NCBI GenBank assembly: GCA_963794945.1
Contig: CAWCFT010000004.1
Coordinates: 370,691-434,690 of the forward strand
DNA: 64,000 nt
From: Endomicrobiales bacterium
GTDB lineage: Bacteria > Elusimicrobiota > Endomicrobiia > Endomicrobiales > CAWCFT01
Reading direction: 5' to 3'
Of the stretch, positions 1 through 12,148 are shown piece by piece. The notes below the pieces were generated by a model. That model was not told the origin of the DNA and searched no databases. It was given only the letters and a program-made list of their open reading frames with translations. The position numbers were made by a program, and so were the translations under genes. Numbering within the stretch: position 1 is the first letter of the stretch; every line of letters starts with the position of its first letter.

Positions 1-106
1 AAACAGCGTCGGCTCCGGCGCGTATAGCTGTTATAAATGACTCTTTCGAGCCGACTGGGGCTAGCAATTCCATATGTGTTTCACTACGCTTTCTGGCCTG
101 TTTTGC

Positions 107-454
107 TTATCCTGCCTGCCCGCAATCCTTCATCATGTTTATCAGCTGTTTTTCATCGAGCCCAACACCGGGTTCGGCATCCAACCGTTTAACTACGGTC
201 CCCTTCTCAAAATACAGCACCGTGGGCACGGCTTCTATTGAAAATTTGTCTTCGCATCCGTCTAGGATATGGGTCATTACCCGTAAGCAGTTTTGGGCCT
301 TCGCGTGCTTCTCAAAGATTGGCAAGAACCGCCTGGAGTGAGGGCACCATGAGGCGTAGAATAGAACAAGCACACTTTTACCGCTTTTAAGGAATGCTTC
401 AAACTCTTGTTCGCTGCTTATCTCTTTGCTCATGATATTACTCCCAGCCTTCAT
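107..454 (-). CDS. Thioredoxin-family protein (monothiol CxxS variant)
   Basis: FYASWCPHS motif and the cis-Pro motif 'IEAVPTVLYF'; the start may be the second Met (433). Confidence 0.8.
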   Translation of the reverse strand: MKAGSNIMSKEISSEQEFEAFLKSGKSVLVLFYASWCPHSRRFLPIFEKHAKAQNCLRVMTHILDGCEDKFSIEAVPTVLYFEKGTVVKRLDAEPGVGLDEKQLINMMKDCGQAG

Positions 455-645
455 AATAAGTTATCACGGAAAATCATACCTTTTTCTATGTGTAAAATCA
501 ATCAGGCGAACACGATAAAATACCCCCTGATCAGCCGTTTGGCGGATAAACAAGGGGTAAAATAACTTGCACTGATGCGCGCCTGAAGGCATCAGTAGCT
601 AATATTATTCGTTAGTCTAAGCTTGACTGTAGTTTATAGGCCTGA

Positions 646-807
646 CTATTTGTTGTATTTTTCAACAAACTTCTTAATGTCTTCGATATTTTCCAATATC
701 AGCTTGGCCTTTTTTAAGCCGAACTGGAACGGAAACTTATCATCTTCTGAGTTCTTGATAACCAGCATGGGGTTGCCTTTGTATTCCGACTCTGAAACTA
801 CTGACAT
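646..807 (-). CDS. Small hypothetical protein, 53 aa (not in ORF track)
   Basis: Manual translation MSVVSESEYKGNPMLVIKNSEDDKFPFQFGLKKAKLILENIEDIKKFVEKYNK*; AGGAGG RBS upstream. Confidence 0.8.
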   Translation of the reverse strand: MSVVSESEYKGNPMLVIKNSEDDKFPFQFGLKKAKLILENIEDIKKFVEKYNK

Positions 808-844
808 GATCTACCCTCCTTTATTTACCAAACAAACTTACCAC

Positions 845-1336
845 TTATATTTTCATAAGTTCGTCTTCTATCATTTCAAAATTCTGATCGCCGAGCTTAT
901 CTGCCACCTCCTGGAATATCACGAGGTCTTCGATCTGCGCGTGTTTGCTCAAGGCCCAGATTATGTACTGGCACTTTTTAATGAAATCTATAGATAGCTC
1001 ACCCTCGCCTTTCTCCATCTCTTCCGCGATAGCCACAAGCTGCCTGAATTCCTCCATGAATTTATCGTGCTCATTTATAGTGTCTTTGATCGTATCTGCA
1101 AGTTCGCCCTCTACGCCCGGAGCGTTGAGAAGCGCTTTAAATATAATATTTTCCTTCAAAAAATGCCTGGCCATAGAAACATTAAAGAACTTGATTATCC
1201 CTTCAAGATCAAACAGGACTCCCCTGGTGTTAAAAACCTTAAGAAATCCGTTAACCACGGCCAACTGTTCGGTTATCTCGTCGTGCACATCGGTCACGGA
1301 TTTGATAATTCTCATTTTATCCATAGCTGGCTCCAA
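845..1336 (-). CDS. Hemerythrin/HHE cation-binding domain protein
   Basis: Helical protein with H...HFLKE...EH...HAQIED metal-ligand pattern. Confidence 0.7.
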   Translation of the reverse strand: MEPAMDKMRIIKSVTDVHDEITEQLAVVNGFLKVFNTRGVLFDLEGIIKFFNVSMARHFLKENIIFKALLNAPGVEGELADTIKDTINEHDKFMEEFRQLVAIAEEMEKGEGELSIDFIKKCQYIIWALSKHAQIEDLVIFQEVADKLGDQNFEMIEDELMKI

Positions 1337-1451
1337 TAAGATACACCTGTTGCTGCCGCCTAATTACGCGCTTAATTCTAACCTAAAATAAATCCCCTGT
1401 CAACACTCACAGGGATTTTGGTTTAACCAGTCTTTTGATTTTGACTTCTGG

Positions 1452-1607
1452 TTTGCCAACTGCCCGCGTTTTCGTAGCGAAAAATTGAGAATTGGAGCGA
1501 AATGCAGGAATCTGAGTCGCGGCGTAGCAGCGCTACGCAAGACGATGATTCCGAAATTGCAGCCCAATTATCAATTTTGCAGCCGAAACTAGCGGGCGGT
1601 TGGCAAA
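1452..1607. repeat. Long imperfect palindrome (MITE/REPIN-like), about 155 bp
   Basis: Ends TTTGCCAACTGCCCGC / GCGGGCGGTTGGCAAA; inner arms AAAATTGAGAATTGG / CCAATTATCAATTTT; apex GCGTAGCAGCGCTACGC. Confidence 0.75.
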
Positions 1608-1721
1608 TCAAAAGAAAAAGAGCCTTCCTTACGAAAGGCTCTTAAATCTTTAAAACGTTTTAAAGACGTTGCCCGAGGTTCGAGCCCCCAGAGGGGTCCC
1701 TCAACGGCATTTTGAAATAGC

Positions 1722-1970
1722 TTATTTTTTCTTCTTCTTTCCGCCTTTTCCACGGCGAACCATCTTCGCTCTCGCGACATCGCCTGCTTTGTCGATGAAG
1801 TAAAGGAAACCTTCTTCTTTCTTCACTCCGACTTTTGCGACCTTCTCGGGCTTACCGCCCTTCTTGCCGCCGCGGGCCATTTTCACGCGGGAAACGTCAC
1901 CGCCTTTGTCGATGAAATAGAGGAAACCATCCGCTCTTTTCACTCCAACTTTCGTCACTTTCTCTGCCAT
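1722..1970 (-). CDS. Small very basic two-repeat protein, probable DNA-binding/chromatin protein (CC1-like)
   Basis: Two copies of EKVxKVGVKxxxGFLYFIDKxGDVxRxKMxR, a Lys tail, and a GGAGGTG RBS. Confidence 0.7.
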   Translation of the reverse strand: MAEKVTKVGVKRADGFLYFIDKGGDVSRVKMARGGKKGGKPEKVAKVGVKKEEGFLYFIDKAGDVARAKMVRRGKGGKKKKK

Positions 1971-2001
1971 TTTATTTCACCTCCTTTTATTTACAAATAT
2001 A

Positions 2002-3159
2002 TTACTGCTTTTGTTTTTCTTCGTTAGTCACAGGGCCGCTGTTCTTTTCCGGGTAGACAAAAACTTTTCCCTGGTAATTCTTGACTATAACAGCCTTGCG
2101 GTTCCTGGAGATAATATATTCCGGATTTATCGGCACCTTGCCGCCGCCGCCGGGGGCGTCTATCACATAAGCAGGCACCGCGTAACCGGTCGTAAAACCC
2201 CTCAATGCTTCTATTATCTTTATTCCCTGCGTCACTGTAGTCCTGAAATGCTCGGTGCCGGCCGCGAGGTCGCACTGGTAAAGGTAATACGGTCTTACCC
2301 TGATCTTGAGCAGCTCGTGCATGAGTTTCATCATAACCGCTGGTTTATCGTTAATGCCTTTTAAAAGAACAGTTTGGCTGCCAAGCGGTATACCCGCATC
2401 TGAGAGCATCGCGCAGGCGTTTGCAACTTCAGGTGACAGCTCCCTTGGATGGTTAACATGGATGCTGATGAAAAGCGGGTGATGGCTTTTAAGCACCGCG
2501 ACCAGTTCCTTAGTTACCCTTTGAGGCAGCGTGACCGGCACCCTGGTGCCGATCCTGATTATCTCAATGTGGTTTATGGAACGCAAGCTTTTAAGCAGGC
2601 TGTCAAGCTTTGAATCAGAAAGTAAAAGAGCATCGCCGCCCGAAATTAGAACATCCCTTATCTTCTTGTTCTGCCTTATATACTCCAGCGCCGCTTCCAG
2701 TTTCGTCTCGCTCAGGTTTTCTTCCGAGCTGCCTACTATTCTGCGCCTTGTGCAGTGCCTGCAGTACATCGCGCAGGCGTCTGTTACAAGAAGCAGTACC
2801 CTGTCGGGGTAACGGTGAACAAGGCCCGGAACGACCATGTCCTGCTCTTCACCGCAGGGATCGGCCAGCTCGTGCACGCTTGTCTTGAATTCGTCAAGTG
2901 AAGGAACGGCCTGCCGCCTTATTGGGCAGTCTGCGTCATTTTTATCCATCAAGGCCGCGAAGTGCGGCGTGATCGCCATTCTGAGCCTGCCTGAAGAATA
3001 CTGGACCGCTTTCTTTTCTTCGGGAGTGAGGTTTACCCACTTTTCCAGCTCGTTTAACGTTGTGATCCTGTGCTGCAGCTGCCAGTGCCAATTGTTCTTT
3101 TCGTCTTTTTCGGATCTGGATTTTTCCGTTTTGACATCAATGGCATCGGATGAACTCAT
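2002..3159 (-). CDS. kamA: KamA-family radical SAM protein (lysine 2,3-aminomutase-like)
   Basis: HRYPDRVLL, CAMYCRHCTRRR, ISGGD, RIGTRVP, PYYLYQCD, and the PLP lysine in DAPGGGGK. Confidence 0.85.
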   Translation of the reverse strand: MSSSDAIDVKTEKSRSEKDEKNNWHWQLQHRITTLNELEKWVNLTPEEKKAVQYSSGRLRMAITPHFAALMDKNDADCPIRRQAVPSLDEFKTSVHELADPCGEEQDMVVPGLVHRYPDRVLLLVTDACAMYCRHCTRRRIVGSSEENLSETKLEAALEYIRQNKKIRDVLISGGDALLLSDSKLDSLLKSLRSINHIEIIRIGTRVPVTLPQRVTKELVAVLKSHHPLFISIHVNHPRELSPEVANACAMLSDAGIPLGSQTVLLKGINDKPAVMMKLMHELLKIRVRPYYLYQCDLAAGTEHFRTTVTQGIKIIEALRGFTTGYAVPAYVIDAPGGGGKVPINPEYIISRNRKAVIVKNYQGKVFVYPEKNSGPVTNEEKQKQ

Positions 3160-3187
3160 TGATTCCTTTTGTGTCTAAGGTAAATAC

Positions 3188-3442
3188 TCAAACGGATTCT
3201 TTGTTCTTATCTTTATTGAAAAAAGGCAGCGCCGGTTCCTCTTTCTTTGTTATTATTTTTTCTTTAAGCCATGCGTCAACTACTTCTTTTGAAAACCTGT
3301 ACTGGCGGCCTATCCTGGATGCCGGTATTTTTTGTTGCCTGATAAGGTTATATATTTTAGACTTACCAATGCCAAGATATTCAGAAAGTTCTCTGATGTC
3401 CATTACTTGTTTTATATCTTTTTGTGTTCCATTTGTTTCCAT
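3188..3442 (-). CDS. Excisionase-like helix-turn-helix DNA-binding protein (HTH_17)
   Basis: MDIRELSEYLGIGKSKIYNLIRQQKIPASRIGRQYRF pattern. Confidence 0.85.
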   Translation of the reverse strand: METNGTQKDIKQVMDIRELSEYLGIGKSKIYNLIRQQKIPASRIGRQYRFSKEVVDAWLKEKIITKKEEPALPFFNKDKNKESV

Positions 3443-3777
3443 ATTTTATCACCTTGTGTCTTGTACTTGCATCCTATGTCATAATTATAACACTATATTT
3501 TTATGTTTGTCAATAGTTAAATATTTCCATGTACTGCCATTAGGCTTTGAACAGCCTTATAATCTGCTATATTCTGCTGTTTGATAATGATACTACTTGT
3601 TTGTACTGCAAACATTATTACAACTATATGATGTAACAACAAAAACCACCCGCAAAAAGGTGGCTTATCAAAAAAGAATAAAATTAATTAATATTTCGGT
3701 GGGATTTTCTGCAGGCTTACAGGCTTATTGAAAGCCTGCAAGCCGCAAAAAATTTGTGGGTTAAATATGATATCGGT

Positions 3778-3957
3778 TTACAGATCTTCCGAACCAAGTG
3801 TTTTTTTGTTTCCTGCTAACTTTGCTTTCTCAATTGACGCCTTTACTATTTCTTCGATCTTCGCGGAGAGAGACGCCGTATAATCCGCCCCTGTCCTGAA
3901 ACCTGCTTCCTTTACCATCTTCTTTACCTTGCTTACTACAACCATAATTTCTGCCAT
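3778..3957 (-). CDS. Bacterial histone-fold protein (Bd0055/HBb-like), 59 aa (not in ORF track)
   Basis: Manual translation MAEIMVVVSKVKKMVKEAGFRTGADYTASLSAKIEEIVKASIEKAKLAGNKKTLGSEDL*; GGAGGTG RBS; pattern VVxSKVKK...LS..I......AK..G.KT...D. Confidence 0.85.
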   Translation of the reverse strand: MAEIMVVVSKVKKMVKEAGFRTGADYTASLSAKIEEIVKASIEKAKLAGNKKTLGSEDL

Positions 3958-4049
3958 TTGTATTGTTCACCTCCCTTTAACTTATATTATTTTATCGAAA
4001 ATATTTCAGTATGTCCACTTTTTTTTAAAAAAGTATCTAGGTTATGATA

Positions 4050-4865
4050 TTAAAAATTTTTAAATACACCGAATGACATGGTGTATTTCTTATAACTGTC
4101 CTGCAGTTCAAGGTAAGCCACGCTCGCTGTATATCCATAGCTTTTCTTGAGCCACTTACGGTATTTCAGCTCAACGCTTGTGACGTTACCGCTGACCTGC
4201 TGCGGAGGGAAAGCGTAGGTGGCGAGATAACCCTGCCCGCCAGCGGAACAGTTGAGATATATCCAGCTTTTGCCTTCCTGCCCGTAAGCTGCGCTCAAAA
4301 GTGTCGAACCTGAAACAAAACCGCCCGGGTCGCTCGTGTTCTGCAAATACCTGTAGGATAATATCCATTTTTCCATGTACACCGTGATACCCGGGGAAAT
4401 AACGGTGTCTAAATGTTCGTCATGCGCCTTCATGTAGGTGCCGCCGAGTGTCAGCACGATATTTTTTTTAGCGCCTACCTTAAAATTGCAATCGTTGTTT
4501 GCCCTGAACGCCTGCAGGTACGGTGAGTCTGTACCGGCGGACAAAGCCGAATAAGTGTAGAACCACGGGCTCCAGTCTCTGTAAGCTCCAGCGATGCCTA
4601 CCGCCCCGCCGCCGTCTATCCTTGAGTAAAAACCACCCTCGCAGAACCAGGTGAACCCCGTAAACGGCATCGAATAATAATCAAGCAGAACGGATTTGTT
4701 CTCTCCGTAAACATCCTTTGGAGAATACTGCTCGTAAAAAACCGTGCATTCGAGCCTGTTCTTAAAATCCTCTGTTGGCTGCACGGGGATTATCGGGGCG
4801 TTCTCTGCGGGCAAGCGCAACGCGCAGCACAACAGCACGAGGCCCATAACTATCAGTTTGTTCAT
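4050..4865 (-). CDS. YaiO-family outer-membrane beta-barrel protein
   Basis: Signal peptide, alternating aromatic beta-strands, terminal Phe, AYRDWSPWFYTY segment; last gene of a GT2 operon. Confidence 0.7.
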   Translation of the reverse strand: MNKLIVMGLVLLCCALRLPAENAPIIPVQPTEDFKNRLECTVFYEQYSPKDVYGENKSVLLDYYSMPFTGFTWFCEGGFYSRIDGGGAVGIAGAYRDWSPWFYTYSALSAGTDSPYLQAFRANNDCNFKVGAKKNIVLTLGGTYMKAHDEHLDTVISPGITVYMEKWILSYRYLQNTSDPGGFVSGSTLLSAAYGQEGKSWIYLNCSAGGQGYLATYAFPPQQVSGNVTSVELKYRKWLKKSYGYTASVAYLELQDSYKKYTMSFGVFKNF

Positions 4866-6697
4866 TTACTTTCCTTTAAGAATATTTTCTTTGCGCCAGG
4901 GTTATCGTTAACAACCATATAATAGTAATCCTCGTCCGAAGAGACCGATATATCCGCTCCTTCAGGTTGAATGTACCCGTTCCTGGGCACAGCGACAGTT
5001 ATGTCTTTTAATCCCTCGGGATTATCGATATTCACCTCAAGGCCGCCGTTTACCCGTGAAAAATAATATTCTGTCCTGAGGAACCTCATCATAAATTCCG
5101 CGAAGTAGCTCATCGGTTTTACAGTGAGATCACCTGCCCTCATACGAGCCTGCGCGTAATCTAGGAAATCGCTTATCGGCCCGGGGTAGCTTGAAATATT
5201 GTACGGGTGAGAATAGATAAGCCTCACAGTCCGGTTACTTGTTATGTAATCCACCGTTGACAAAAGCCAGTCCTTTACCTCGCGCGGCGTCCTGCCAGCC
5301 TGTTCCATTTCATAAAAAGAAGCCGAAATGCCAAGCGGCATTAAAGGGAAAGCTATAACGCAGGTAGAAATCATAACACCGTTGGAAAAAGTTCTGTTCG
5401 GAGACGAACCGCTGTCGCCCGTATAATAATAGGACCCCATACCGAGCTCTTGAAGGGCTTCCGTTGTATAAGGCTGAACATGTACCCCAACCGGCGCAGC
5501 GTATTCGGTTATATTGTAACCTGTTATAGCTTTAAGCGCGTCGTTATTCTTTTTTATGTACATCTCTACCTCAGGTTTTTTAAAAAGTCCTCTTTCTATA
5601 TTGTCCGCGAACCAGTTGTGCGCCCAGCCTCCGTGCGAACCGATAATCCCGTAACCTAGCAGCATCTCGGCGTATTTCCTGCCTTTTCCCTCCGCGTCAA
5701 ACCCGAGCCCGTCGCCCGGCTTGTCCCTGAAATCTCCTGCCGTGATGTGGAGCGAGTATTCCAACCCTTTTCTGAGGTACTTTTTTTCTATCATGAACGG
5801 AATGCTTTTGTAATCGATGTTGGCGTCTATGTGCCAGTTGATCACAAGCCCGCCTTTGCCGCGCGGGACATTTAGCAAGTGCGGCAGGTGCACAACCTTA
5901 AATGCGAATGTCCGAAGGACAGACCTCAGCGGCAGGTCATCCGAATATGCTTTAAGGAACCCTAGAGGGAGGTTGACGTACACAACTTTACCTTTGCCGT
6001 AATTTCTCAGTATCACAGCCGGCAGCCTGTCATTTTCTCCTATAACCGCGTAAGCGTAAACGTCGTCCGCGCTGAAGCCTCCCGCTGTTTCGGTGCGGGC
6101 TATCGGGTATTGAAGTGAACCGTAAACGTAACCCGTAAGAAGCTTTCCCCCGAACAATTTTCCGGGCGGTATCCCGAAATATCCCGCGGCGACATTGTCT
6201 TTGAACTGTATGCTTCCCTTTACGTACGAACGCTCCTTTAAAGTTGAATACAGCACATAATTGACTCCGCAGAACTCTGTAAAAAGTGACTCGTCCCTGT
6301 AGAAACCGCCCGGCGTTCTTACGCCGGCGTCGTAAACAAATAAGCAAGAACCGCCGGCCGCGAGGTAGCTCGACACCCATGGTTTGATATCCGGCGGCAG
6401 TGAAGAGCATATGTTGTCCGGGAAAATTATAGCCGGGCAGTTGGCTTCCAGTTCTGCAGGGTTGGCCGACAGAAGATAAGATACGCTTACGAACTGGAAA
6501 GGTATGCCTTCTTCCTCCAGTACGCTTTTGTACGCTAAAGCCTCCGGCTTGTGCGCCATCGATGCGCCGCTCGAAACCACAAGGACCCGGATGTGCTTGC
6601 TTATTTTATTGTTCTCTATAACCGAGCGGGCCGCGTAGCAAACAAGGAAAATCAAAACAGCCGCAAGCGCGGTATTCCTTAATATCTTCATGTTCAT
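4862..6697 (-). CDS. Polysaccharide deacetylase-domain protein
   Basis: N-terminal TM segment; NodB-like motifs WHIDAN, GSHGGWAH, YSHP. Confidence 0.7.
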   Translation of the reverse strand: MNMKILRNTALAAVLIFLVCYAARSVIENNKISKHIRVLVVSSGASMAHKPEALAYKSVLEEEGIPFQFVSVSYLLSANPAELEANCPAIIFPDNICSSLPPDIKPWVSSYLAAGGSCLFVYDAGVRTPGGFYRDESLFTEFCGVNYVLYSTLKERSYVKGSIQFKDNVAAGYFGIPPGKLFGGKLLTGYVYGSLQYPIARTETAGGFSADDVYAYAVIGENDRLPAVILRNYGKGKVVYVNLPLGFLKAYSDDLPLRSVLRTFAFKVVHLPHLLNVPRGKGGLVINWHIDANIDYKSIPFMIEKKYLRKGLEYSLHITAGDFRDKPGDGLGFDAEGKGRKYAEMLLGYGIIGSHGGWAHNWFADNIERGLFKKPEVEMYIKKNNDALKAITGYNITEYAAPVGVHVQPYTTEALQELGMGSYYYTGDSGSSPNRTFSNGVMISTCVIAFPLMPLGISASFYEMEQAGRTPREVKDWLLSTVDYITSNRTVRLIYSHPYNISSYPGPISDFLDYAQARMRAGDLTVKPMSYFAEFMMRFLRTEYYFSRVNGGLEVNIDNPEGLKDITVAVPRNGYIQPEGADISVSSDEDYYYMVVNDNPGAKKIFLKESK

Positions 6698-7906
6698 ACA
6701 GTTAAACCCGAGTGTTCGTTAAGGCAGTAGCCGTGAATGATCACGTCCTTGCCCAGCGTGAGCTTGGTTTTGGATATCACGGACCTCGCCTCTGTGTCAC
6801 TGCCTACTTCAGTGCAAGACGCTAAATATATTTCTTTTGCCGAATAAACATTGCCCATTATGATACAGTGTTCGCCAACATAAATATTACCGTTAGCGAA
6901 TATGCTTCCCTTGACCGTTACGGAATCGTCTATCTGCACGCTGCCGTGCGCCTTGATGTTCGACGATATCTCGCAGCCTTTGCCTATGATAAGGTCATTT
7001 TGCACTATCAGGTCGCGGTCAACTTTTGTCCCCTGCGGGATTGAAAGCGTACTCTCGTTGTTGCACCAGGCGCCGTCACATATGTTCTTAAACCCTGGCC
7101 GGGCCGGCGGCTCAGCTGAACACGTTCCGCTCGAGAACGTTATGATGGGGTTGCCGGCGATATATTTGAACCTGCAGCGCCGGCCCACTTCAAGCTTGCC
7201 CATGCATGCAACCCTTATACCAAGCGTTGAATTGTTGCCGACCTGAATGTTACCCTCAGCGCCGGCCCACCGGATGATCTTCGCGCCTTCTTCGAACAAT
7301 ATATCGCCTTTGGCGGCTGAAAGCCCTCACGATATTGTTGCAGCCCAGGTGGGCGTTCTCCGCCACATAAACTTCTTTTTCGAGAGTCACATTATCTTCT
7401 GTGTTGAGCTCCGTTTTTACGAACAGCAGTTCCCTGAAAGTGCTTCCTTTAACCAGCCTGACAGCATCGTTTACCGAAACCTTCTCGTATTTTGAGAACA
7501 AGGCGTTTATCATCCCGACCGGCGGGTCTTCACCTATGGCGTTGAAGATAAGCTGCTCGAAAGACTTTTCAAAGTACATCGAGTCTTTTGTGTATTTCGG
7601 GTCGATATTGAGCGACATCAGGTCTTTGGGCTTAAGCAGTTCCCTCAGCGCGAAATAGAATGGGAATATCAGTATGATCGAAAAGATAACTGAGAGAACT
7701 ATGAATACCCCGCCCTTTGAAAGGCCGATCTTTTTTGAGATGCTTTCCAGCTCAGCGGCGCTGGCTACGGTATAGTCCCGGCTCGAGGCCGCGTAGGTGT
7801 CGCCCCGCACGTGGTCCCGGGCCTGCCCGCAAAAGCATTTTGCCTGCGCCAGCATCAACGCGAAGGCAATTATTATTACCGCCTGTAACGCTCTGTTTTT
7901 GCCCAT
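6694..7906 (-). CDS. Membrane-anchored beta-helix (polymer-forming/bactofilin-like) protein, split by a frameshift near 7280
   Basis: Overlapping ORFs 7256-7906 and 6694-7299 with continuous hexapeptide-like repeats (IKAHGSVQI, IFANGNIYV). Confidence 0.6.
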
Positions 7907-9123
7907 ATGACTTCCCTTGTACCGAACTGGTCTATTATAGCGTCCAACGAACCAAGCGTGCAGCTGTAAAGGTTGAAAAGAAAATTAAACAGCACGAACG
8001 GCAGAAGCCTTATCCTGTCGGTGAACCCGTCCATGACCGAGGCCGTCCCTATCTGGTAGAACGGAGCGAAGTTGCCGAAGAGGTTGAACCCGGCGACCGC
8101 GAGGAATATGAAAAGGCTTTCGTATATCTGTATCTGGTCAAGGAAGAACAGTGCCGTAGCGTCGATTATTCCCAGAGATAGTATTATAGGTATTATATAT
8201 ATGGAAAGCAAAAGAGTGCCGTCTATTTTAACTTTCCAGCTGACGAACCTGGACTTCCACAACGGCGCTAGGTATTTGAACATCACCTGCGTGTGCCCGC
8301 GGGACCAGCGCCGCACTTGCCTCGCCCGGACATCCCAGTCTTCCGGCACTTCTTCGTAGCACTCCAGGCGGTTGTTGTAAATGACTTTCCACCCATTTAT
8401 TATAAGCTTGAAAGTCAGCTCGGTGTCTTCGGTAAGTATGTCCGGGCTGAAACTACCCAGGCCAACGACCACGCTTTTCCTGAAACCGCCTACGGTGCCG
8501 CCGTACTGCGGGATAAGGTTCAGGTTCTGCCTCGCCTGCTGGTCCACCTGGTAACCCGCAGAACGCTCAAGGCTTAGGAGCTTCGTCAAAAGGTTAACAT
8601 CCGAGTTATCCGGCACAACCCTGCCCATCACCGCCCCCACTTCCGGGTCTTTAAAAGACATGACCATGTCCCGCACTATCCCCCGCGGAGGCGTGTAGTC
8701 CGCGTCGAAAACAACTATTATTTCGCCCCGCGCGATCTTCAGCGCGTCGTTGATGGCGGCCGGCTTCCCTCTTTTTCCTTCATGCCTGTTCAGCGGCTTG
8801 ATGAGTTCGTACTTTGCCGCGAACTCGTCGATTATCTTTTGCGTTCCGTCAGTTGAGTGGTCGTTGACAGGTATGATCTCGAGTTTTTCCGCCGGATAGA
8901 TCATGTCCGCGAGGCACTGCAGCATGTTGCGGGCGACCTTCTCTTCATTGTGCATCGGAACAACTATCGTCACCATCGGCAGGTCAGAATCCATAATATC
9001 CTGGTGGCTCATTTTCTGTTCGGTGGATATACGGTTCATGCTGAATATAAAATGCCTCAGTATGTAAAGAAGCATTACAACCAGCGAGAACGTGATGTAA
9101 GCTTTCATTAATGTTATTATCAT
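7876..9123 (-). CDS. Processive GT2 glycosyltransferase (cellulose synthase/PgaC/YaiP-like)
   Basis: PMHNEE, DHSTD, GKPAA, FDAD, TED and QVRRW (QxxRW) motifs with TM helices. Confidence 0.9.
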   Translation of the reverse strand: MIITLMKAYITFSLVVMLLYILRHFIFSMNRISTEQKMSHQDIMDSDLPMVTIVVPMHNEEKVARNMLQCLADMIYPAEKLEIIPVNDHSTDGTQKIIDEFAAKYELIKPLNRHEGKRGKPAAINDALKIARGEIIVVFDADYTPPRGIVRDMVMSFKDPEVGAVMGRVVPDNSDVNLLTKLLSLERSAGYQVDQQARQNLNLIPQYGGTVGGFRKSVVVGLGSFSPDILTEDTELTFKLIINGWKVIYNNRLECYEEVPEDWDVRARQVRRWSRGHTQVMFKYLAPLWKSRFVSWKVKIDGTLLLSIYIIPIILSLGIIDATALFFLDQIQIYESLFIFLAVAGFNLFGNFAPFYQIGTASVMDGFTDRIRLLPFVLFNFLFNLYSCTLGSLDAIIDQFGTREVIWAKTERYRR

Positions 9124-9214
9124 TGAAATTTCCCTATTTGAAACAAATTCGAAATCCGAAGCGCGAAATCCTGAACAAACTACAAACAGAAAACAATTGA
9201 AAAGCCCTTTATTC

Positions 9215-9303
9215 TGTCATTTCGATCCGCCTCTGGCGGAGAGAAATCTTTTCTTTTGTAGAACATAAGATCCCTCACCCGCATTGCGGGATTCGGGATG
9301 ACC
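9215..9303. repeat. TGTCAT-ended palindromic repeat (empty copy)
   Basis: TGTCATTTCGATCCGCCTCTGGCGGAGAGAAATCT...AGATCCCTC...TCGGGATGAC. Confidence 0.85.
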
Positions 9304-9363
9304 AACTCATAATCGAATTGGAAGTACCCTTTAGGGTATTAGAATTTCGAAATTGTTTTTAAT

Positions 9364-10137
9364 TTAGCACTTCCACGCCAGCTGGTCGCCCTGGAGCCTT
9401 TTTGATATTATGCTCGCGTAAACCGAGTATATGCCCACAATGTAAACCGTGTCCAGCGGCGGGTCGAAAGCGATGAACATTGTCGCCATAAAAACATAAC
9501 TGAACCTGTGGATTAGGAACAGGAAAAGCACATACCTTACAAACCCGAACGCGATGGAATAGACAAGCACGGTCGCGATAACCGCGTACTGCTCGAATAT
9601 GTTCGCTGGCAGAAGGACCAGCGATATGGCCATTACTACGGGGATAATCGCCCATATACCTATCTCGGTGGCAAGGTAGAAGTCTGAAAATCGCAGCACG
9701 TTGTAGGGGAAACTGTCAGGGAACAACAGGAATACCGCAGCCGATACGGCCGTTATCATCAGCACAAAGCTCGCGTACAGCGTGATGGACCTCGGCACTT
9801 TTTTTACCTTGGCCAGCAGCCAAATGCCTGCAACGCACGCCGCGCACAAACCGGCTGAAAACCAGGGTGTCGGGTATTTGCCCATGAAGTCCACAAGGTA
9901 CATCTTGCCGAACAGCGAAATCTGCTTTTCCGCTATGTCGGTGTGCACTCCGCTTAGGTAGGTAAAGATGTCTTTAGCGGCGGTGCTTATTAGAAATGTT
10001 ATGTCGGACGAGAAGACAATAACGAAAACTATGAACGGAACGCATAGCGCGGCAAACCTCAGAAAATTCCCTATCTTTCCCGGGAAATATATCCTTCGGT
10101 ACGCCCTGTGGCAGTATATCTGGCCTTCTTTATTCAT
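9364..10137 (-). CDS. Multi-pass membrane protein, first gene of the EPS operon
   Basis: About 7 hydrophobic segments; co-oriented with the GT2 gene. Confidence 0.7.
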   Translation of the reverse strand: MNKEGQIYCHRAYRRIYFPGKIGNFLRFAALCVPFIVFVIVFSSDITFLISTAAKDIFTYLSGVHTDIAEKQISLFGKMYLVDFMGKYPTPWFSAGLCAACVAGIWLLAKVKKVPRSITLYASFVLMITAVSAAVFLLFPDSFPYNVLRFSDFYLATEIGIWAIIPVVMAISLVLLPANIFEQYAVIATVLVYSIAFGFVRYVLFLFLIHRFSYVFMATMFIAFDPPLDTVYIVGIYSVYASIISKRLQGDQLAWKC

Positions 10138-10151
10138 TGATACCCGTTAGT

Positions 10152-10235
10152 TGTCATTTCGAATCCCGCCTGGGCGGGAGAGAAATCTTTCTGAGCGGCA
10201 AGATTCCTCTCCGCCTCTGGCGGATCGGAATGACA
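10152..10235. repeat. TGTCAT-ended palindromic repeat (empty copy)
   Basis: TGTCATTTCGAATCCCGCCTGGGCGGGAGAGAAATCT...AGATTCCTC...TCGGAATGACA. Confidence 0.9.
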
Positions 10236-10320
10236 GGCCCACGTCAGGAATAACCGTTGTCACCCGCGCGCCAAAGTAGTATAATTTGAGACAGTTGAAA
10301 AACATCGATTCCAGCTTTTC

Positions 10321-10396
10321 TGTCATTCCCGAGTGCCTTAATCGGGAATCCATTATCAAATGAATTGTAGATTCCCGCTTTCGCGGGATTCAATGA
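10321..10396. repeat. TGTCATTCCC-subtype palindromic repeat
   Basis: TGTCATTCCCGAGTGCCTTAATCGGGAATCC...GATTCCCGCTTTCGCGGGA. Confidence 0.8.
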
Positions 10397-10411
10397 TCTC
10401 AAGGAGCCAAC

Positions 10412-10759
10412 ATGTTCTGCCCTAAATGCCGCACCGAATATATTGACGGTTTAAAAACATGCGACGATTGCGGGACGGCGCTGGTGGAAACCCTGCCTGA
10501 AGAATGCCGTAACGAAGAGCTTGATTACCGCAAACTTACTGATGTTTTTACTACCAACAATTCAATTGAAGCGAACTTCATCAAATCCCTTCTTGGCTCC
10601 AACAACATCGAGTGCTTCATCAGCAACGAACACCTTGTCTCTATCAATATTCTTATGAGCCAGGCCGTCCAGATGAAAGTCCTGGTGGCTCCCGAAAACG
10701 CGCCCCGCGCAAAAGAAATAATCACACAGTATTATAAAGACCTGCAGGCCGGGCACTGA
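10412..10759 (+). CDS. DUF2007-like protein with N-terminal zinc ribbon
   Basis: MFCPKC...CDDCGTALV and EANFIKSLLGSNNIEC; AAGGAG RBS. Confidence 0.8.
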   Translation: MFCPKCRTEYIDGLKTCDDCGTALVETLPEECRNEELDYRKLTDVFTTNNSIEANFIKSLLGSNNIECFISNEHLVSINILMSQAVQMKVLVAPENAPRAKEIITQYYKDLQAGH

Positions 10760-10804
10760 CCATATTTATACGCGTTTTAGCCGTCAAACAAAATACCCCC
10801 CACC

Positions 10805-11231
10805 TTATTTAATTATTGAACTGGATCTTTCAAAAAATTTTGCTGCATGCTTTAGTAAGCCTTCACAGGCTTGTTCTGTCCATCTGTCATAGTAATCAGC
10901 ATCTTCTCTGAGATTTTTCGCTTCCTGCAATGCTTCCAATAATTCCGCGGGTATTTTGTTTGTTTTCACATACAATTCTCTTATAGCTGCCGCCAGGCAA
11001 AAATGGCTGTGTTCGCGAAGATTTTCCGCGTACAAAAGCGCCCGCGCGCTATGAAACATTGAATAGTAGGTTTGCACCGTGGCCCATTTATAATCTTTTT
11101 CTTCGTAAGTTTTTTGCGCCCTCTTCAAGTCTGATTCCGCGGTCATCCAGCTCCTTGCGGGCCAATTCCTTTCCTCTTGAAAAAGGCTTAATTTTTCCTC
11201 GTTTTAAACAATCGTCATACTCAAGGCTCAT
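10805..11231 (-). CDS. HEPN-domain protein (frameshift near 11146)
   Basis: YYSMFHSARALL, EHSH, REDADY; N-terminus MSLEYDDCLKRGKI is in another frame and overlaps the upstream stop (ATGA). Confidence 0.8.
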
Positions 11232-11779
11232 CTTTCCTTTTCCTCCGCAAGCGTTATACCTCTTTCTATTTCTTTGTAAAAGACGGGGTTTTTTTCCTTC
11301 CATTCCGCAAGCTCTGCCTGGGTTTTCACTATAACCTGCGTCTTTCGGTTCGACTTATACGAAGACAATATTTTATTAACAGCCTCGTTGTCCCTGGCAA
11401 GGACAAAAAGGTCGATATCGCTGTCAGACATATCCTCGCCGCGGCTGGCGCTGCCAAAAAGGATTATTTTTCTTGATACGGTAATGAGTTTGCTCACAAG
11501 GCTTTCCAGGCTGACCGTGACAAACAGCACCTTAAACTGCTTGGCGATAAAATTATCGTGGTTGAAACTGTAGATCAACAGGTTTCCCCTTGAATGCCTA
11601 TGGACAAGATGCTGTCTCGCCAGGTCTTTCAGCGCCAGATAAACTCCCGGGCGGCTCAGCTTTGTAACAGCCTGTATCTCGCTAGAAATGAAATCTTTCT
11701 CGGGGCTTGCCGCCAGAAATGATAACACCTTAAGCGCGTTAGAAGAATTAAAAACAGTAACCTTTGAAATCCCTTCCAT
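11228..11779 (-). CDS. HTH plus minimal nucleotidyltransferase (MNT antitoxin)
   Basis: LFGSASRGEDMSDSDIDLFV motif; N-terminal wHTH; coupled to the HEPN gene. Confidence 0.85.
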   Translation of the reverse strand: MEGISKVTVFNSSNALKVLSFLAASPEKDFISSEIQAVTKLSRPGVYLALKDLARQHLVHRHSRGNLLIYSFNHDNFIAKQFKVLFVTVSLESLVSKLITVSRKIILFGSASRGEDMSDSDIDLFVLARDNEAVNKILSSYKSNRKTQVIVKTQAELAEWKEKNPVFYKEIERGITLAEEKER

Positions 11780-11789
11780 AAAAACCCCG

Positions 11790-11847
11790 TGTATATTAAT
11801 TTATACTTATGTATAATATATTATACTTGTGTATATTATACTATACA
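11790..11847. promoter_or_regulatory. Three tandem GTATA-Nx-TATAC palindromes upstream of MNT-HEPN (putative operators)
   Basis: TGTATATTAATTTATAC, TGTATAATATATTATAC, TGTATATTATAC. Confidence 0.5.
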
Positions 11848-11872
11848 GTAAGTGCCTTGTCAATGGGCTTAC

Positions 11873-12148
11873 CTAATGAAAAGCACTATTATTATTGTGC
11901 CTGAAATGCACGAACACCCTGCCGAAATTCTTGTCGTCGTTCTCCAGCCTGTGGTATAGGCATTTTATTTTAGGCTGAGCGAGGAACCGCTGAACGTGCT
12001 TCTTTAGCTGGCCGCTGCCTTTGCCGGTAATTATCTCAACAAGCGGGATGCGCTTACTAACCGCTTCTTCCATAACGCGGTTAAGCTCGCTTTCGATCGC
12101 CTGCCCTTTGTTGAATATCTCATGCAGATCCAGTTTTATTTTTGCCAT
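11873..12148 (-). CDS. Stand-alone Smr/MutS2 C-terminal domain protein
   Basis: LDLH...EIITGKGSGQLK motif. Confidence 0.9.
   Translation of the reverse strand: MAKIKLDLHEIFNKGQAIESELNRVMEEAVSKRIPLVEIITGKGSGQLKKHVQRFLAQPKIKCLYHRLENDDKNFGRVFVHFRHNNNSAFH

Follow-up and report, generated by a model that had tools for sequence, protein, structure and literature searches.

A 59-residue histone-fold protein of the HBb/Bd0055 kind in the genome of an Endomicrobiales bacterium

Does a reading frame of only 59 codons in the genome of an Endomicrobiales bacterium encode a histone and, if it does, is the altered second loop (L2) of the predicted protein a peculiarity of this gene or a property of its lineage? 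The locus lies in a stretch of 64,000 nucleotides of contig CAWCFT010000004.1 (assembly GCA_963794945.1, positions 370,691 to 434,690), hereafter the window, to which all coordinates refer. A preliminary description, made from the letters alone, had proposed here an open reading frame (ORF) with a GGAGGTG ribosome-binding site; frame and site were confirmed letter for letter on the minus strand (Table 1), and direct translation from the ATG yields the same residues. Just three in-frame codons separate the upstream stop from this ATG (open frame of 62 amino acids), so the start codon is unambiguous. The predicted protein has a mass of 6.3 kDa, an isoelectric point of 9.35, 11 lysine and arginine against 8 aspartate and glutamate residues, and the C-terminus ...AGNKKTLGSEDL.

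The window protein is a histone-fold protein of the HBb/Bd0055 kind, as the preliminary description had suggested from its resemblance to Bd0055. When it is compared alone with the PDB by phmmer, the best match is HBb (Bd0055 of Bdellovibrio bacteriovorus; 8fvx, 8cmp) at E 6e-7, followed by HLp (0.0075) and HTkC (0.011). A family profile, defined by an alignment of 44 members (A1), gives strong matches to HBb (2.3e-18), HTkC (2.8e-16) and HLp (7.6e-15), and weaker ones to the M. kandleri histone (8.8e-6), HMfA (1.9e-4), HMfB (6.9e-4), NF-YB (0.012) and many H4 chains (about 0.04). An AlphaFold2 monomer model built on the same 44 sequences contains the helix–loop–long helix–loop–helix arrangement of the histone fold (alpha1, residues 8-17; L1, 18-23; alpha2, 24-48; L2, 49-55; alpha3, 56-58). 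The top 7 of 406 Foldseek rows obtained with this model are HBb, HLp and HTkC chains (TM 0.80-0.86, probability 1.00, E 2.6e-3 to 1.7e-2), the rows after them are nucleosomal histones and TAFs, and all top structural matches are histone folds; the superposition on HBb has a root-mean-square deviation of 1.1 Å over 57 residues. Both the predicted fold and the profile similarity, on either of which the histone reading could have failed, were tested, and the reading survived.

Which histone class does the gene belong to? Very probably it encodes an alpha3-truncated histone in singlet form, from the 'bacterial dimer' (HBb/Bd0055) class, as the standard chromosomal copy present in most Elusimicrobiota. 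The alpha3-truncated family is defined by an alpha3 of 3-4 residues and an alpha2 that is 4-5 residues shorter than in nucleosomal histones (Schwab 2024). In the window protein the model places the last helix at residues 56-58 with the chain end at 59, alpha2 has 25 residues, and alignment of the M. kandleri histone (1f1e) to the profile requires an insertion of 4 residues in alpha2 of the archaeal protein. The minimal alpha3, which had at first been counted as unusual, is therefore what defines the whole family (Schwab 2024), and the solved 59-residue HTkC ends at the same aligned position. Compared with HMfA and HMfB (1b67, 1hta, 1a7w, 5t5k), alpha2 of the window protein is about four residues shorter, as judged from the M. 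kandleri alignment and Schwab 2024, and alpha3 has 3 rather than about 10 residues, so that the four-helix-bundle interface of hypernucleosomes is missing. The bacterial dimer class itself is defined by sequence clustering, and Elusimicrobiota are among its main holders (Schwab 2024). The window protein is assigned to it by its match to HBb, the best in the PDB both alone and by profile.

HBb (8fvx, 8fw7, 8cmp, 9ezz, 9f0e) is the best match in sequence as well as in fold. The two proteins share the N-terminus M-A-E-x-x-V-V-x-S-K-V-K-K, the short alpha2, the one-turn alpha3, K52, T53 and D58; both are single small basic proteins with no further domain, and both lack the residues of the face-to-face (FtF) tetramer. 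Unlike HBb, the window protein has K51 for R51, no D49, E57 for R57, V8 for T8, G23 for S24 and R21 for N22; its L1 has one residue fewer, an extra residue stands between K46 of alpha2 and K51, and the chain stops at L59, whereas HBb runs on for five residues more (64 in all). Closer counterparts are already in print: the Table S1 and alignment of Hocher 2023 list 59-residue K-K-T singlets of Elusimicrobia as bacterial histones, e.g. OGR87431.1, OGR84132.1 and OGR57714.1. These share the K-K-T-L-G-x-E-D-L end and, against other bacterial histones, the gap pattern of the window protein, from which they differ by ordinary sequence divergence only; OGR87431.1 is identical to P0031 of our collection, which is 76% identical to the window protein.

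The family extends over much of the phylum. A word-indexed search yielded 397 candidates, all of them relatives at E<=0.001; the best 120 of them are nearly all 59-61 residues long and 69-98% identical to the window protein, the closest (P0001) differing by one residue. The organism names given by the source are all Elusimicrobia, Elusimicrobiota or Endomicrobiales metagenome-assembled genomes, and the products are called 'hypothetical protein' apart from one evident misnomer, a label that follows from the failure of Pfam and NCBIfam to recognise this phylum-wide protein. An exhaustive search of representatives returned 56 clusters at E<=0.001, among them doublets with two matched stretches (118-150 residues). 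At the same threshold the A1 profile matches 134 of 401 sampled phylum genomes, mostly at 1e-24 to 1e-30 (about 100 bits), and 104 of the 293 with completeness of at least 90% and contamination of at most 5%. Matches are the rule in the families denoted f29 (43/48), f27 (10/10), f25 (9/9), f26 (6/6), f11 (9/10) and f19 (9/11), and the K-K-T histone occurs in almost all families besides f2, f20 and f24. It was found in none of the 89 sampled f2 genomes, which belong to the window's own order (1.1-2.1 Mb among those listed); the profile matches 2 of 47 f24 genomes and 5 of 118 f20 genomes, all five weakly (7e-5 to 8e-4). This scarcity looks like lineage-specific loss.

The preliminary description had drawn attention to L2, where it noted a one-residue insertion and the loss of the clamp arginine. 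Both are real relative to HBb: one extra residue stands between the conserved alpha2 lysine and [R/K]-K-T (K46-L-A-G-N-K51 in the window protein, K47-A-D-G-R51 in HBb). A one-residue deletion in L1 offsets this insertion, numbering is equal at both ends, and K51, K52, T53 and D58 thus correspond to R51, K52, T53 and D58 of HBb; the published alignment has the same gap pattern (Hocher 2023). The clamp had been taken for the adjacent 'RD' of the C-terminal A-R-D of HBb, but it is formed by R51 (of R-K-T) with D58, reinforced by D49 (Hu 2024). In the window protein D58 is kept and R51 is conservatively replaced by K51. The R-x-T-x4-D motif, conserved in alpha3-truncated histones without defining them (Schwab 2024), accordingly reads K51-K52-T53-x4-D58, with the threonine and aspartate retained. 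Lysine at the aligned place is also found in a solved archaeal histone, that of M. kandleri (1f1e), whose first repeat reads G-K-K-T-L.

The claim that this L2 is unusual did not hold. All 119 singlets within the best 120 relatives have the clamp lysine, the S-K pair and the L1 arginine (119/119 each), K-K-T-L-G-x-E-D is the invariant end of the Elusimicrobiota family in this set, and in 100 of the 119 the chain ends one residue after the aspartate. In a wider sample of 150 singlets of 50-80 residues the motif fits 144, with a clamp lysine in 126 and a clamp arginine in 18; of the six that depart from it, four have divergent, apparently frameshifted or truncated C-termini and two read K-I-T or R-I-T. 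Relative to HBb these features are indeed unusual, but within the clade they are the norm, and they have already been catalogued.

How might such a protein act on DNA? Two chains would form a head-to-tail pair held by their crossed alpha2 helices, and each end of the dimer would present an L1-L2 site (R21 of L1; K51-K52-T53 of L2) together with the start of alpha1 (S9-K10, K12, K16). Through the paired L1-L2 sites and the alpha1 starts, the dimer may make non-specific backbone contacts across the minor groove, and K51, in place of the clamp arginine, is expected to form a salt bridge to D58 that would hold L2. Because alpha3 has three residues, no four-helix-bundle surface is available for hypernucleosomes. 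Such dimers may bend or coat DNA as an abundant nucleoid-associated protein beside the genome's HU. Two outcomes are conceivable, since HBb has been proposed to bend DNA (Hu 2024) and an HBb–DNA crystal displays dense edge-on coating of straight DNA (Hocher 2023).

Six of the ten DNA-contact residues of HBb are identical here (S9, K10, K12, K16, K52 and T53). Contact residues of HBb are stated to be conserved in Elusimicrobiota relatives (Hu 2024); this is not literally true of the window protein for the other four. In the profile alignment R21 of L1 falls on an arginine in both HTkC (...M-R-V-S...) and the M. kandleri histone (...E-R-A-S...). We take this place, by homology and in part by comparison with HMfB, to be that of the minor-groove 'sprocket' arginine of archaeal histones. 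In bacterial histones an arginine at the sprocket place is described as not conserved (Hocher 2023).

Several observations weigh against a DNA-coating dimer histone of the HBb class. The mean pLDDT of the AlphaFold2 model is just 79.9, for a monomer. The aspartate that reinforces the clamp (D49 of HBb) is absent, and four of the ten HBb contacts differ: R57 is replaced by E57, with reversal of charge, T8 by V8, S24 by G23 and N22 by R21; R57 stands second in a contact list ordered by the number of contacts in simulations (Hu 2024). The RNA evidence given below is a single contig from one run of one study, and RNA libraries can hold DNA. The literature searched yielded no DNA-binding or abundance data for any Elusimicrobiota histone, and no paper characterising such a histone or discussing a lysine clamp was found among the passages searched. 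Finally, no Pfam or NCBIfam family matches the window protein at E<=10, and PF00808 (CBFD_NFYB_HMF) finds nothing in the whole genome; this silence is a gap in the models and no evidence against the histone fold.

A different view of the same residues is that the K-K-T histones of Elusimicrobiota are a functionally distinct third subtype of alpha3 histones, more than copies of HBb. It rests on the combination of the lysine clamp, the invariant L1 arginine and the glutamate in place of R57 of HBb, and we regard it as unlikely, though less so than the alternatives that follow. If it were true, the L1-L2 site would grip DNA more like that of an archaeal histone, and the protein might differ from both published modes, the DNA bending of Hu 2024 and the straight nucleohistone filament described in Hocher 2023.

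The protein could also be an FtF histone like HLp or HTkC, in which two dimers join in a tetramer shaped like a torus, with about 60 bp of DNA wrapped around it. This is improbable. FtF tetramers have the signature R-x3-N-x-R-x-T, represented in HLp by R49, N53 and R55 (Hu 2025) and in a published logo by R48/N52 (Schwab 2024). The window protein reads A45-x3-G49-x-K51-x-T53 and so lacks both interface residues; A45 and G49 occupy their places, six and two positions ahead of K51 of the clamp. The neighbouring N50 is out of register, and family members have N, G, K, S or T there. Identity is 42-44% to HBb against 24-25% to HLp, and 24-32% over the solved FtF proteins HLp of Leptospira perolatii (9qt0-9qt2) and HTkC of Thermococcus kodakarensis (9f2c), which, unlike the window protein, have R-x3-N-x-R. 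The phylum itself separates the types, since a second gene with the FtF signature exists in other Elusimicrobiota: second copies at ten loci (L017-L026, in genomes G344, G078, G130, G400, G072, G398, G238, G370, G119 and G326) carry ...R-A-x-x-N-G-R-K-T... in all ten sequences fetched. Two distinct histone types coexist in part of the phylum, and this genome shows the HBb-like one only.

Less probable still is a histone fold whose main role is other than chromosome coating, such as that of a local regulator or a protein–protein adaptor. Roles of this kind have been proposed for certain divergent prokaryotic histone folds, DUF1931-type ones among them, and the loss of the R57 and T8 contacts and of the clamp arginine, as well as the presence of HU, which could be the main nucleoid protein, would fit them. 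Against this stand the basic and contact residues S9-K10, K12, K13, K16, K52, T53 and the L1 arginine, which are invariant or nearly so in the family, and the net positive charge at an isoelectric point of 9.35. The single-gene unit, the strong ribosome-binding site and the neighbours that vary between genomes are likewise what is expected of a housekeeping nucleoid protein rather than of a factor tied to one pathway.

That the window protein is the obligate heterodimer partner of a second histone paralogue, a possibility raised in the preliminary description, is hardly credible. Pairs of paralogues do exist in the phylum (31 of the 134 genomes with a match list two or three), but 103 of the 134 list one only. 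The window histone is single-copy in this assembly: searches with the protein, the A1 profile and PF00808 found no second histone-fold gene (next profile matches, E 0.2 and 1.0) in a genome of 2.9 Mb in 19 contigs that is 86% complete, so that the failure to find a paralogue is no proof of absence. As no paralogue was found, the heterodimer proposal is unsupported.

Is the frame a gene at all? It is, and the gene is conserved and subject to purifying selection. Third codon positions hold 28-41 of the 41-66 nucleotide differences from nine related genes, and the codon changes relative to the related locus L013 are 32 synonymous and 6 non-synonymous. In one metatranscriptome (X1), a contig of 190 nucleotides equals window positions 3771-3960 with 0 differences at a depth of 8.7, and the rest of 3000-5000 is uncovered; such contigs cannot show transcript ends or levels, and this one is a hint of transcription of the histone gene. 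Sister RNA runs of the same study (X2, X3) have no coverage of the stretch, which is no evidence of absence. That the frame is a chance ORF and no gene, as its shortness (59 residues) and its neglect by every curated family model might suggest, has next to no probability and is for practical purposes already refuted by the gene evidence, namely phylum-wide conservation at about 100 bits, the third-position bias of the differences, the strong ribosome-binding site, a confident helical model matching solved histones and the exact RNA-library contig.

Table 1. Coordinates of the histone gene, its candidate signals and other genes of the window
Feature	Position	Strand	Basis
Histone-fold coding sequence, 59 amino acids	3778..3957	-	ORF, HBb sequence/profile match, fold match, third-position differences, RNA-library contig
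Shine-Dalgarno GGAGGTG, 10 nucleotides 5' of ATG	3968..3974	-	Read directly
Sigma-70-like promoter candidate TGGACA-17-TAAAAT, 10/12 matches	3989..4017	-	Consensus match, weak alone
Hairpin of about 22 bp in the 3' untranslated region, from 25 nucleotides past the stop codon, without U-tract	3704..3753	-	Folding vs shuffles
Intrinsic-terminator-like hairpin, 9 pairs, then T-run, about 112 nucleotides past the stop	3633..3666	-	Terminator search
YaiO-like beta-barrel gene, upstream neighbour	4050-4865		
HTH_17 gene (excisionase/MerR-like helix-turn-helix), 84 amino acids, downstream neighbour	3188-3442	-	
HU gene, only HU detected in the genome	61904-62185	-	PF00216, E 3e-27

With 59 residues the protein falls one short of the 60-residue default floor of the ORF lister, which was set to 40 residues here; the default floor would plausibly explain the absence of the gene from an ORF track. 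GGAGG-like sites are also found upstream of the histone gene in related loci. The promoter candidate lies inside an AT-rich gap of 92 nucleotides (GC content 0.24) after the upstream YaiO-like gene, where its kind is not rare: 4 sites in the region against 2.9 +/- 1.7 in shuffled sequences. On the 3' side, a stretch of 151 nucleotides folds at -45.9 kcal/mol (z -6.3; as stable in 0 of 200 shuffles), and the stop codon is likewise followed by strong GC-rich hairpins at L008, L010 and L013 and by a weaker one at L006. One terminator-like site was found against 0.8 +/- 0.8 in shuffles. An Rfam scan of 3400-4300 gave 4 matches, all far below gathering scores and attributable to chance, and thus no known RNA family in the 3' untranslated region. 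From the promoter candidate, the downstream hairpins and terminator and the neighbours, the histone gene looks monocistronic; the HTH_17 gene downstream has its own perfect promoter (TTGACA-18-TATAAT with extended TG, 3513-3484), and a lysine-2,3-aminomutase-like gene lies next beyond it.

Gene context was considered as a clue to the function of this copy and rejected, the nuoA–nuoB and tRNA-Met (transfer RNA) neighbours of other loci being absent here: in 12 related loci no flanking ORF of at least 60 residues matches the first 12 kb of the window, and no tRNA was found within positions 1-12000. Elsewhere, nuoA (Oxidored_q4) and then nuoB lie downstream on the same strand in seven of the twelve loci (L005, L007, L011, L012, L014, L015, L016); nuoA directly follows the histone gene in L012 and L016, and a gene intervenes in at least three (L005, L007, L011). 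In L016 nuoC comes next, and tRNA-Met stands just upstream of the histone gene in three of the twelve. In L008, L009 and L013 (same order) a LUD-domain gene and a gene for a Rex-like redox-sensing repressor (CoA_binding + Put_DNA-bind_N) stand ahead of the histone gene; rpsB is downstream in L013 and, by similarity, in L009.

Genes for a histone and for HU both occur in this organism, within the same window. Just downstream of the lysine-2,3-aminomutase-like gene, a very basic ORF of 82 residues (1722-1970, minus strand) consists of two similar halves (each ...K-V-G-V-K-...-G-F-L-Y-F-I-D-K-x-G-D-V-x-R-x-K-M...) with Gly/Lys-rich linkers. It has no Pfam match and no PDB relative (best E 7), its nearest Atlas clusters are without names and come from Elusimicrobiota and DPANN-type archaea, and it may encode a small nucleic-acid-binding protein. 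Among the histone relatives, the representative search also returned four odd proteins (P0122, P0133, P0125 and P0169): one of 150 residues with a signal-peptide-like N-terminus and two histone-fold repeats, one of 279 residues with two C-terminal repeats, and two very long ones (2346 and 1849 residues) with weak or multiple matches.

As a discovery the gene has little weight, since published work already contains the family, its occurrence in Elusimicrobiota and near-identical sequences. A floor of 60 residues in ORF listing nevertheless drops a protein found throughout this phylum. For the biology of the family, the lysine clamp, the L1 arginine and Glu57, all invariant in the clade, are natural variants that could help to show which residues set the disputed DNA-binding mode of HBb.
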